DNA of 54,495 nucleotides, the filler included, from Bipalium vagum (Eukaryota), in assembly GCA_037834085.1 (NCBI GenBank). It is 3 parts of 3 records of this genome, joined end to end, with 100 filler letters (N's around TTAATTAATTAA, not from the genome) between each part and the next. Parts side by side here need not be neighbours in the genome. Positions count along the whole stretch, not along the records: positions 20,337 to 36,222 come from JBBMKC010131181.1; 2 more parts are not named here. One strand, given 5' to 3'. Positions 21,450 through 25,165 of the stretch are shown piece by piece (positions within the stretch are counted from its first letter, which is position 1; each line of letters starts with the position of its first letter). Below the pieces are notes generated by a model. That model was not told where the DNA came from, did no database searches, and saw nothing but the letters and a program-made list of their open reading frames with translations. A program made the translations under genes and the position numbers.

Positions 21450-21990
21450 ACAATTCCAACTTAATCCTGAAGACAAATATGATTACTATTAAATTCTCTA
21501 ATAGAAAATATATTCATATTTTTACATAATACATAATGATTATTATGTAATAACAAATTATATTTTCTTTCTTCTATAGTTGGATAGGCTATAAAATGTT
21601 CAATATGGATTGGTGAAATTTTTTTTCATTTGCACTCTTCTGATAAATCAAATACATTTACACTAATAATATTTTGATTATTCAATTATTTTGATATCTT
21701 CTATTTTCGTTGAAAAATTTATGATATTTAAATTCAATTGATTTATATATGAACATAATTTTTTATTATATCACTATGAGTTTCTGCAGTATGTAGTTAA
21801 GCAATAACAGAATAAACAAAACATTTTATACTGGTCGACATAATTATTTATACTTATTGTTTCTTTAAGTGAATTTATCTCAATTAAGGAATTTGCTGTT
21901 GGTTCAATTTAAAAAATATGTCTGTTATTATCTTCTCGGTACTGATATATATATTTTTGAATTGGAAATATATTATTTTTAAAATTATTT
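21450..21990 (-). pseudogene. Second, more eroded pPolB N-terminal-like region
   Basis: Blocks ..YKMF/KCF.., TKIEDIK..QNIISVNVFDL, YNLLLHNNHYVLCKNMNIF, HICLQD resemble the FP..I.KFE.QN.ISVNVF / LLL..HY..IKN motifs. Confidence 0.55.
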
Positions 21991-22079
21991 TGTAATTTTG
22001 ATTATCAATAATGAAATAAAGGACATAATTTTTTATACAACTACATTATCTTATGAGAAGAAAAGAAATGCGAGCTTAA

Positions 22080-22860
22080 TTAATCATATTTCCTTTTTTA
22101 ATCAACACATTCTATATATTTTGATCAGAATAAATCTGGATAATTTGATTTAATATAAATTCCAAAACACATAATTTCTTGTTTAAATACTTTTTCGTGT
22201 GTTAATGAAAGATCATTTAAAAATTTTTCTTGTTCATCTTTTGTATATTTTTTATTTCCACTAATATCATAAGCTTCAAAATCTACATATATTGAAAATG
22301 GAACTTTATTTTTATAATTAAAATTTATTGAATTTTAAATATTCTTTTTCAGGAAAAGTTTTTTTGTTGGTTTATGTTGTCTACAATCTAAATTGAAATG
22401 TTTTTTAATGTACTTAAAGTTTGAAAAGAACATAAACAATTTAAACAGGGGAATGATTTCTGTTTATTTGTTTAATTCAGAAAAGTTGGAGCATCTTCAC
22501 ATAATACAAAATGATAAACATCTCCGGAAAAAAAGAATAATTTTCTTTAATGAATAAAATTTCAATAATCATCTTTTAATGTAATTGGTTTCCAATTTAA
22601 ATGTTCTATATGAATTAGTTTTATTTCTCTATATTCATCAACTAAATTTATAGAAAAAAATTAATATCATCCAAATTTATAATTTTTAAATATTGATAGT
22701 AATTATGAGGAAATTCTGGATTGTTTTCCACAGGAAACATTGAAGCTAATGCAGATCAAACAAAACAATAATGATCTTCATTTTTAATATTAAGTGTAGA
22801 TTTTGAATCAAAATTTAATTCAATATAACCTCCTGCTGCAGATGTTCGGAACGGTAAATA
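22080..22860 (-). pseudogene. Protein-primed family B DNA polymerase (pPolB) N-terminal region to ExoI, disrupted and truncated
   Basis: GGYIELNFDSKSTLNIKNEDHYCFV*SALASMFP; FPCLNCLCSF...HFNLDC; YKNKVPFSIYVDFEA (ExoI DxE), as in Polinton polymerases (SYI.LP..INIKN.D..CF.W; CxxCL; PFVVYADFE). Confidence 0.78.
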
Positions 22861-23923
22861 AAATAGGATAAATGAAAACAAATTGAATCGAATACAAATA
22901 TTTTTATTTGTAAAAATGTGATTTTACAAGGGGAGGTTAAACGGGAATCCTTAAATCCTTACACAGTTACCCTGTAATCTGTGGCAAGGCCCTGAGATGA
23001 TTTACCAACCCTAACTGTTGTGTAAATCACAAACAAAAAGAGAAATATGAAAGATGAGAAAACAAAAAATGAAGATAATCCTATAAAATAGTGATTATCG
23101 GAAAAATTGTGGATTTTAAGATAAGTTTAAATAATCTGTGAAAACTGTAATAGTTTATTAGATATGATAAATAATGAAATAATAGTGAAGGTATTAAGAA
23201 TTCGTCTTTGAATGTCGATTGGATTTTCGTATTTGGTTATCGTTTCAGGTTCCGTCTGTGGGTTTGAATTCGAATTTAATTGTGAATTTTTCTGTCTATG
23301 AATTGCGTAGTCTCCGAATTATTCTGTCTCTATATTGTCCTGAATCTAAATTGTTTTGGTCGCTCGTGCTTAAATAGTTTGATTTTAGACTTGTTGATAG
23401 GAACTGTTATTGTCATCACGACTGTGTTGTTTTTGTACCAAAGGTTTTGTGTCTCTGTTTTTGTTTTCAAGCTGACCTTTTATATTGTATTTTCTTAGGT
23501 TATTTCTATTTTTGTATTTTAATTATTTCCTTTTTTCGTTGGTTGTTTTAAATTATTTCCATATTTATATTTGTATAATATATTTTTTGCTAGATTTCTA
23601 TTTTTAGAAACCTAGTATTTTCTGATTTTAATTTTATGTATAATTGTTTGTTTTCAATATATTTTCTTTAATTAATAATTAATTATTAATAGTAATAATA
23701 ATAATAATAATTGTTAGGTCTTAATTTTTTATCTGATCTTTAAAGATTCTCATTTTTACAATTGAATTCAGATAAAGGAAAATACTTTTAATACCTTTAT
23801 TCAAATCAAAATCAAAAATGTTAGGATCAAAAATTGTCAAAAATTTTTTAATTTCTCTTGAGTCTCCACGATATAAAAATATTTTACTTCAAATTCTCTT
23901 AACTTTTAGTTTCAATGTCAGCT

Positions 23924-25050
23924 TCAGCTGCAAGACTTTGTCTCGACATTAAATATTTTTCCTCCTTTTAATTTTATTTCCATAAATTGTTCTTGTAATA
24001 GAACAACATTTATTTTTCCTAAAGTTTTTTTATCTTTTACAATATGTGGTTACAACTGCTCCATTAATACATAAATTTTCTGGTTGATCTTTTAAATCAA
24101 AACAAAATATAGAATATAAATTTTGAAATTCTAATAAACTTAATTGAGGATCAGAAGTATAACTTCCAAGAGTTCTGCTTTCATATTTAAAATATTTGCA
24201 AGCTTTTACATAATTCGAAAATGTTCGATTTTTTTTTCTTTTTCAAATTGAATTGTATTTAAAGGATAATAAGAATTATTAACTTGAATTCTTAAATATT
24301 TTATTTTATCTTGAATAAAAAAATATTTTTTCATAAAATCAAATTAAGCTTCTCTAAAAGCTATAAAAATATAAATTGGTTTATTTGGGATATTAGATAA
24401 TTGTAAAGTTTGAGTTGTTCCTTCAGTAAGATTTCTTTCCTCACAGTGTCTCAATAAGAAGTTTACATTTATAGATTTTCCATCACCTATTCTTGATACT
24501 AATTTTAATTCAGATGAAGGATTTAAAGTTAATTCATGGATGAATAGTTTTAAATCAATTAATTTTATTTTAGCTTCTCCTTTTGTTCCATAAAATATTT
24601 CTTTATCAATATCTATTCTTCGAGTAAATGTTAATTCTCCTTACATATTATAAATAACTCTATTATAAAATTTTAAAAATCCAAATATAAATTTTAATGA
24701 AAAATCACCAGTAAATTTGGAAGCTTTGCTTCCGAGAGCTCCGCTCGTATTATTTGAATATAATTGTTTTCTTTTTATATACTTTATTGTCCTTAGTTTC
24801 ATCTTCTTTAATTTTATCTGGAATCTACCCAAATATTTCTCCATCATTATTTTATCAATCACTATAAAATTTGTAATTGAATTCAAATAATATTCTATTT
24901 TTTACTTCAGTTGATCCTAATTTTAAAATTGCATTTGAAAATAAATAAGGAAAGAAATTATTTTGTAAAATAATATTTTCATCCAATTTTACATCTTCAA
25001 TTTCAATTTCAAAAACAACTACTGCTTCTGAAAGTTCTAAAGCATAAAGA
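23924..25050 (-). pseudogene. Double-jelly-roll major capsid protein pseudogene (Polinton/adintovirus type)
   Basis: Translated blocks: ILQNNFFPYLFSNAILKLGSTEV; FSLKFIFGFLKFYNRVIYNM*GELTFTRR; LKLFIHELTLNPSSELKLVSRIGDGKSINVNF...NKPIYIFIAFRE; IQVNNSYYP; LEFQNLYSIFCFDLKDQPE. They are colinear with invertebrate Polinton capsid motifs. Confidence 0.78.
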
Positions 25051-25074
25051 ATGATTTTAAAAAATATTTTTTAA

Positions 25075-25165
25075 AATTACTTTTTAGTAATTCATTTTCA
25101 TAAAATCTACCCAGTATTTCTTTTCCATTTTTATCAATAGTTTCATAAACAGTTGGAGTTATAAA
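25075..25165 (-). pseudogene. Polinton-type retroviral-like integrase, C-terminal fragment
   Basis: TPTVYETIDKNGKEILGRFYENELLK matches the T.P..Y.L.D..GE.I.G.FY..EL.K tail of Polinton integrases. Confidence 0.7.

Follow-up and report, generated by a model that had tools for sequence, protein, structure and literature searches.

In vertebrates most Maverick loci are relics. Barreat and Katzourakis (2021, PMC8097293) classed 96% of 3,511 such loci as degraded, and the organization they describe is an int-mCP-PW-MCP-PRO module, with two genes between integrase and capsid on one strand. Starrett et al. (2021, PMC8502044) report that human chromosome 7 holds a disrupted relic of a Beta adintovirus; they place an OTU domain on both classes of adintovirus PolB and characterize the Beta class by an OTU-bearing PolB that is less than 30% identical to PF03175. 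The domain order of the DNA polymerase, pPolB, is given as TP-vOTU-EXO-PALM in PMC11071308, and a further survey counts more than 20,000 integrase-linked pPolBs across 960 eukaryote genomes (10.1101/2023.08.22.554363). Here we describe positions 21450-25165 of a 54,495-nucleotide stretch of DNA from Bipalium vagum (hereafter the window, meaning that whole stretch), where about 3.7 kb of the minus strand hold broken pieces of capsid, integrase and DNA-polymerase genes of the Polinton/Maverick type. Very probably this is the dead remnant of one, or possibly two adjacent, Polinton/Maverick insertions that belong to a multi-copy family in an animal genome.

The locus resembles the degraded animal Mavericks described in PMC8097293 in its stops and frameshifts, in the lack of discernible terminal repeats and in the position of the integrase, which precedes the major capsid on a shared strand. 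It differs from the vertebrate Mavericks of that account, where pPolB has a module to itself, usually on the opposite strand, whereas here it follows the capsid on the same strand; the presence of two vOTU pieces is a further difference. With the Beta adintoviruses as portrayed in PMC8502044 it shares a putative N-terminal OTU domain on pPolB and the condition of a disrupted endogenous copy, but no adenain, FtsK-type ATPase or penton was found in the window. The features are collected in Table 1.

Table 1. Positions of the Polinton/Maverick pieces and of other transposon remnants in the window.
Feature	Position	Strand	Remarks
C-terminal tail (about 31 codons) of an rve-type Polinton integrase	25064..25156	minus	without catalytic core or chromodomain
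Double jelly roll major capsid pseudogene, PF21738 family	23927..25070	minus	four pieces in alternating frames, in-frame stops
Spacer of 1 kb, in the expected place of the terminal-protein part of pPolB	22880..23920	none	without Polinton match
pPolB fragment 1: vOTU-like domain, CxxC zinc knuckle, ExoI	22134..22878	minus	stops and frameshifts; cut after ExoI
Second, divergent vOTU-like piece	21470..21878	minus	terminates where the zinc knuckle begins; N-terminal part of a second pPolB or a stand-alone vOTU gene
Motifs named in the initial annotation	25138-25082, 24962-24936, 24697-24647, 24385-24356, 24128-24084, 22794-22762, 22447-22433, 22301-22272	minus	
Mariner transposon remnant, not part of the Polinton	20431..21397	minus	HTH_48 and Transposase_1 matches; immediately past the last Polinton piece
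Further Tc1/mariner and pogo-type transposase remnants	174-567, 28272-28700, 29385-29774, 49043-50042, 41660-42113, 53057-53692		HTH_48, Transposase_1, CENP-B_N with DDE_1, HTH_Tnp_Tc3_2

Reference loci were drawn from IMG/VR. A degenerate pattern made from the window's ExoI-like motif retrieved 12 loci, of which 10 were kept and the long open reading frame (ORF) around the match aligned. Another pattern, made from the integrase tail, retrieved six loci, three of them with an integrase (L019, L023 and L022, the last being L013 again). L013 (IMGVR_UViG_3300027549_000010), L005 and L023 are all Polinton-like IMG/VR contigs. L005 and L013, found with the pPolB motif of the window, carry the same capsid family as the window: each has a PF21738 capsid together with an A32 ATPase. 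In L013 there is in addition an integrase with rve and chromodomain, and L005 shows a weak match to Peptidase_C5. The profiles for the major capsid protein (MCP) and for pPolB were run against 11 controls, namely 10 shuffles and one reversal of the window.

The capsid match lies in one of the three minus frames of 23900-25400, which were read with X at stops for the Pfam search. There PF21738, a double jelly roll-like domain, is matched with an E-value of 1.4e-10 and 41.3 bits, the cut-off being 27. A profile built from the two reference capsids alone gives the MCP 55.9 bits on the window and at best 9.3 on the controls. With a 122-sequence capsid profile, columns 73-100 (weakly), 162-326 and 328-381 of 426 are matched in collinear order. 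The capsid spans about 1110 nucleotides, or some 370 of 426 codons (about 87%), and 247 of the 426 profile columns are matched, 28 of these weakly. The initial annotation had called this capsid near-complete, which is true of its span but not of its state, as it lies in four frame-shifted pieces and has lost its N-terminus, the first 35-50 residues. Two in-frame stops fall inside the best-matching piece. The first piece is weak by hhalign (E-value 0.003, probability 10.7), with a weak extension to reference residue 51, and the last (24049-23927) found no hhalign support and was placed by a tblastn match to the L023 capsid that reaches 23997.

Identity of the window capsid to the capsids of L013, L005 and L023 is 25-28%, and to the wider references 22-33% (110 of 128 matched), a range to be read knowing that the references cluster round one contig and that decay adds divergence. 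The family itself is very large: the reference-capsid profile matched at least 7,280 proteins at E-values of 1e-10 or better among 8,000 candidates scored, a few of them scallop proteins by name. The 120 capsid homologues all lie close to L013 (63-99% identity), and a fragment that is 27% identical cannot be placed on a tree with them; the divergent lineage of the initial annotation is a proposal at this stage. The predicted fold of the intact L013 homologue (pLDDT 77.7, pTM 0.83) is the double jelly roll that had been proposed for the capsid. This model matches the capsids of PBCV-1 (Vp54), Sputnik, mavirus and PRD1 (best E-value 3.6e-15), as well as predicted viral capsids that include adomavirus, MELD virus and adintovirus entries. 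By way of that model, the window copy would have encoded the same fold.

The pPolB pieces were likewise recovered above the controls. Fragment 1 corresponds to profile columns 232-326, 367-423 and 405-497 of 1268 (E-values 4.6e-08, 0.007 and 5.8e-05; hhalign probabilities 88 and 68), and with a reference-only profile the pieces score 19.8, 15.5 and 12.7 bits where the best control reaches 7.5. The labels vOTU and ExoI are our reading of aligned Cys/His and YxDFE motifs, set against the domain order in PMC11071308. No terminal-protein part and no motif beyond ExoI was found in the window, where only columns 232-497 of 1268 are represented. The pPolB N-terminal and ExoI motifs of the initial annotation therefore stand, but they amount to about one fifth of the gene, without polymerase motifs, and the second vOTU piece had been overlooked. 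Among the long pPolB ORFs of the 10 references, six match Endonuclease_7 and one matches PF03175. The scarcity of PF03175 matches fits the definition of the Beta PolB in PMC8502044, in a reference set that was chosen with the window motif and holds no Alpha reference. The pPolB is probably of the Beta class. In a separate observation, the IMG/VR contig L007 carries a long pPolB of the matched class (804-4811) beside a Sputnik-type virophage capsid (10702-12360; PF21915, PF22031).

The integrase tail is 45% identical over 31 residues to residues 238-268 of the L013 integrase and is the top match of that integrase in the window. At 16.7 bits its score exceeds 11.2, the highest value in 30 shuffles. 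Circularity does not arise here, since it was the pPolB motif that retrieved L013. For L019 and L023 it was the tail motif, and their integrase matches are for that reason not counted as support. The tail adjoins the capsid, as the initial annotation stated, and the beginning of that capsid is missing. A contig of sequencing run X1, which may be the source sample, spans 24954-25198 without differences and crosses the junction between the two, making an assembly error at this point unlikely. For the catalytic core, no Pfam rve match was obtained on the window pieces. In L019 (7125-10996) we also observed, behind an integrase, a tandem array of three related ORFs that belong to one cluster.

The assignment of the three genes to Polinton/Maverick (adintovirus-like) families is borne out by these searches, with the capsid above the Pfam cut-off and the reference profiles for capsid, pPolB and integrase tail above all shuffles. 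Their description as fossils is likewise supported. All eight motifs were located on the minus strand in the order given, spread over three frames, with stops and frameshifts throughout. The near-absence of ORF signal was also correctly noted, since 21450-25165 contains no stop-to-stop ORF of 100 or more residues. With its motifs in three frames and its in-frame stops, the locus has lost its coding capacity; the remnant is unable to copy itself, to integrate or to make a capsid. GC content in the Polinton region is 19-25%, similar to that of the whole window. In the spacer, none of 18 profiles made from reference ORF clusters matched at an E-value below 0.1 (best 0.15), and two stop-free pieces searched against Pfam gave no match.

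The same 18 profiles, which include the ATPase (eight sequences) and the protease cluster (five), found no further Polinton gene in the window at an E-value below 0.05. For the A32/FtsK packaging ATPase there is no match below 0.5 in the six frames of the window, and for the adenain-like cysteine protease the sole match (0.41) is at chance level and 16 kb away. These two genes had been reported missing, and neither was found. Set beside an autonomous Polinton/Maverick, the locus has the capsid, as a pseudogene only, and shows no pPolB with polymerase motifs, no integrase core, no ATPase, no protease and no convincing terminal inverted repeats. Set beside a degraded Maverick locus, it has the core-gene homology, the lost coding capacity and the embedding in host DNA.

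The arrangement of the intact references helps to explain which parts are gone. With L013, L005 and L023 the locus shares the PF21738 capsid, the start of pPolB (vOTU, zinc knuckle, ExoI) and, in L013 and L023, the integrase tail; what sets these contigs apart from the locus is that their frames are open and that they carry an A32-type ATPase, a protease-cluster ORF and other conserved genes. In L005 and L013 the capsid precedes pPolB on one strand at a distance of 430-590 bases, the order found here, which L023 does not share. Both L005 and L013 have the protease-cluster ORF after pPolB and the ATPase 3-4 kb upstream of their capsid. Integrase and capsid are 3.6-4.7 kb apart in L013 and L023. 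Because the order of capsid before pPolB is native in two of the three references, deletions are needed only at the integrase/capsid junction and at the ends of pPolB. The proposal that the element was shortened by deletions consequently fits those places, but the adjacency of capsid and pPolB need not have arisen in that way.

On the basis of this arrangement we propose the following history. The starting point would have been an autonomous element, its pPolB long, vOTU-bearing and probably Beta-type, that inserted by means of its own rve integrase. Internal and terminal deletions would then have taken away the integrase core, whatever separated the integrase tail from about residue 40 of the capsid, and all of pPolB after ExoI (the polymerase core, which in two references is followed by the protease). 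Point mutations and small indels would then have broken the frames, while other repeats arrived around the element. The loss of the protease fits a cut after ExoI, because the protease-cluster ORF trails pPolB in L005 and L013. By analogy with the references, the ATPase may have gone in the deletion that brought the integrase tail next to the capsid.

Six public sequencing runs, none recorded as RNA, contain part of the stretch, and four of them, each from a different organism, were aligned. Between 1,266 and 8,386 contigs per run aligned (mariner included), most of them less than 99% alike. Several distinct divergent contigs overlap the capsid in all four runs. Since such contigs cover the stretch in four of four, the element belongs to a multi-copy family that is present in the host and in other organisms. 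Summed contig depths vary greatly along the stretch and are not usable as copy numbers or as a ranking of genes. In three runs 22900-23800 is thinly covered, and a soil metagenome has a small share of the stretch; neither is used as evidence here. The initial annotation spoke of a hidden virus; what we find instead is a multi-copy family, which is seen in the runs of three other organisms too.

Several observations count against a Polinton/Maverick remnant. The evidence for the integrase is limited to 31 codons; a five-sequence integrase profile missed the tail and a seven-sequence one reached an E-value of only 0.32. In none of the three references that carry both genes (L013, L019, L023) does the integrase adjoin the capsid. 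The pPolB pieces have no Pfam match, DNA_pol_B_2 included, in the three minus frames of 21400-23900, and direct searches with them returned no homologue. For the 184-residue capsid piece of the window itself, the predicted fold was of low confidence (pLDDT 43.9). None of the 25 longest of 332 inverted pairs is a convincing terminal inverted repeat, the AGTAGT end motif is absent from 18000-31800, and AGAGAG/CTCTCT is only scattered; without terminal inverted repeats and AGTAGT motif, the element ends and a 6-bp target-site duplication were not found. Direct searches with the window pieces brought up no close intact relative: the capsid frame matched none of 745 candidates at an E-value of 0.01 or better, and the ExoI piece matched none of 36. 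Searches of viral contigs with window pieces gave three short matches in one search and none in the others, a search of metagenome contigs gave a single 41-residue match, and PDB sequence searches with the window capsid gave nothing significant.

Could these motifs be chance matches in AT-rich DNA, or an assembly error? The GC content of 19-25% and the short, weak integrase tail and first capsid piece lend themselves to that explanation, but the scores above all shuffled controls, the Pfam cut-off passed, the collinear order of all pieces on one strand and the three letter-for-letter contigs in run X1 leave it a negligible chance, and for the capsid and pPolB it is refuted. A live, intron-split or domesticated host gene, with the frame changes of the capsid as introns, is very unlikely. 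The 308 columns between 73 and 381 map onto 914 nucleotides (305 codons) without inserted DNA and so leave no room for introns, and two stops interrupt the best-matching piece; this collinearity largely refutes the intron model. A better case can be made for a copy of an internally deleted, non-autonomous derivative that had kept the capsid, lost the polymerase and integrase cores and been amplified in trans before it decayed. All three catalytic cores are gone while the capsid is almost full length, and related contigs cover the bins of the integrase tail, the capsid and both vOTU pieces in four of four runs. Yet among the 32 pieces listed, the sole contig that bridges the integrase/capsid junction is the letter-for-letter one, no element ends were found, and the functionless stubs that are left of integrase and pPolB are better explained by random deletion than by streamlining. 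We therefore regard such a derivative as unlikely. A more elaborate version seems to us quite unlikely. In it, a derivative without polymerase or integrase would have retained the capsid and a pair of vOTU protease units, been mobilized in trans and spread among related AT-rich animals, in a Polinton lineage that is absent in intact form from the databases searched. The dead remnant of an ordinary insertion accounts best for the locus as a whole.

The second vOTU piece raises a smaller question that is compatible with such a remnant. It matches profile columns 256-387 (best E-value 6e-05; hhalign probability 87.5), which overlap those of fragment 1. An alignment of 367 bases between the two shows about 67% nucleotide identity and scores 91, where the best shuffle reaches 79. 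As the two are so divergent at the DNA level, a recent tandem duplication is ruled out as its source. The simplest reading is that the piece is a fragment of a second, related element. We would give only a modest chance to the alternative that it is a native, stand-alone vOTU gene of the Polinton lineage. That alternative draws on its position, on the same strand about 250 nucleotides after fragment 1, on the same divergence, on the DNA before it, which has no pPolB match, and on its coverage in all four runs. Against it, a profile of the vOTU region strongly matched only pPolB ORFs, and no stand-alone vOTU ORF, among all ORFs of 24 reference loci, and the piece appears to extend into the beginning of the zinc knuckle of pPolB, with HIC following its His motif, like a truncated pPolB.

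The remnant is embedded in the DNA of an animal, as marked by anoctamin exons and an HPS4-like gene in the same window; an N gap (20237-20336) separates them from the element. The three anoctamin exons (PF04547) lie within 2355-13422 on the plus strand, and the one that was compared with the PDB is closest to ANO1. An unbroken ORF of 465 codons (16409-17806, plus strand) contains a longin domain (PF19031, E-value 4.6e-07) and has HPS4 as its best PDB match (3.7e-05), apparently an intron-poor, divergent HPS4-like gene. The mariner remnant beside the Polinton pieces has a copy at about 47260-48270 on the plus strand, to which it is 89% and 78% identical in two segments, with 89% over 696 bases. 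Being opposite in orientation, the two copies could be mistaken for long terminal repeats around a 26-kb interval. The ORF at 52029-52388 (plus strand), which is without Pfam support, resembles a piece of a Buster/hAT transposase. Two further observations concern the DNA upstream of the integrase tail. About 450 bases away, at 25570-25640 on the minus strand, a CCAAT box precedes a TATA box that is flanked by two 11-base inverted arms, a candidate histone-like or element promoter. At 26480-26760 several runs of G and C stand out from their AT-rich surroundings; they could be the end of a repeat, and no partner inverted repeat was seen.

In summary, 21450-25165 is most likely one more degraded Maverick locus, an ordinary genomic fossil. 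It adds one animal lineage to those with capsid-encoding Polintons and illustrates that such relics are readable from raw sequence. The locus has little significance as it stands. Its capsid family is very large, with at least 7,280 proteins, and copies are as a rule dead. The finding would matter more if the intact copies of this host proved to form a separate capsid clade, and if the capsid with its two vOTU pieces proved to be a mobile cassette, it would bear on how non-autonomous Polintons spread.

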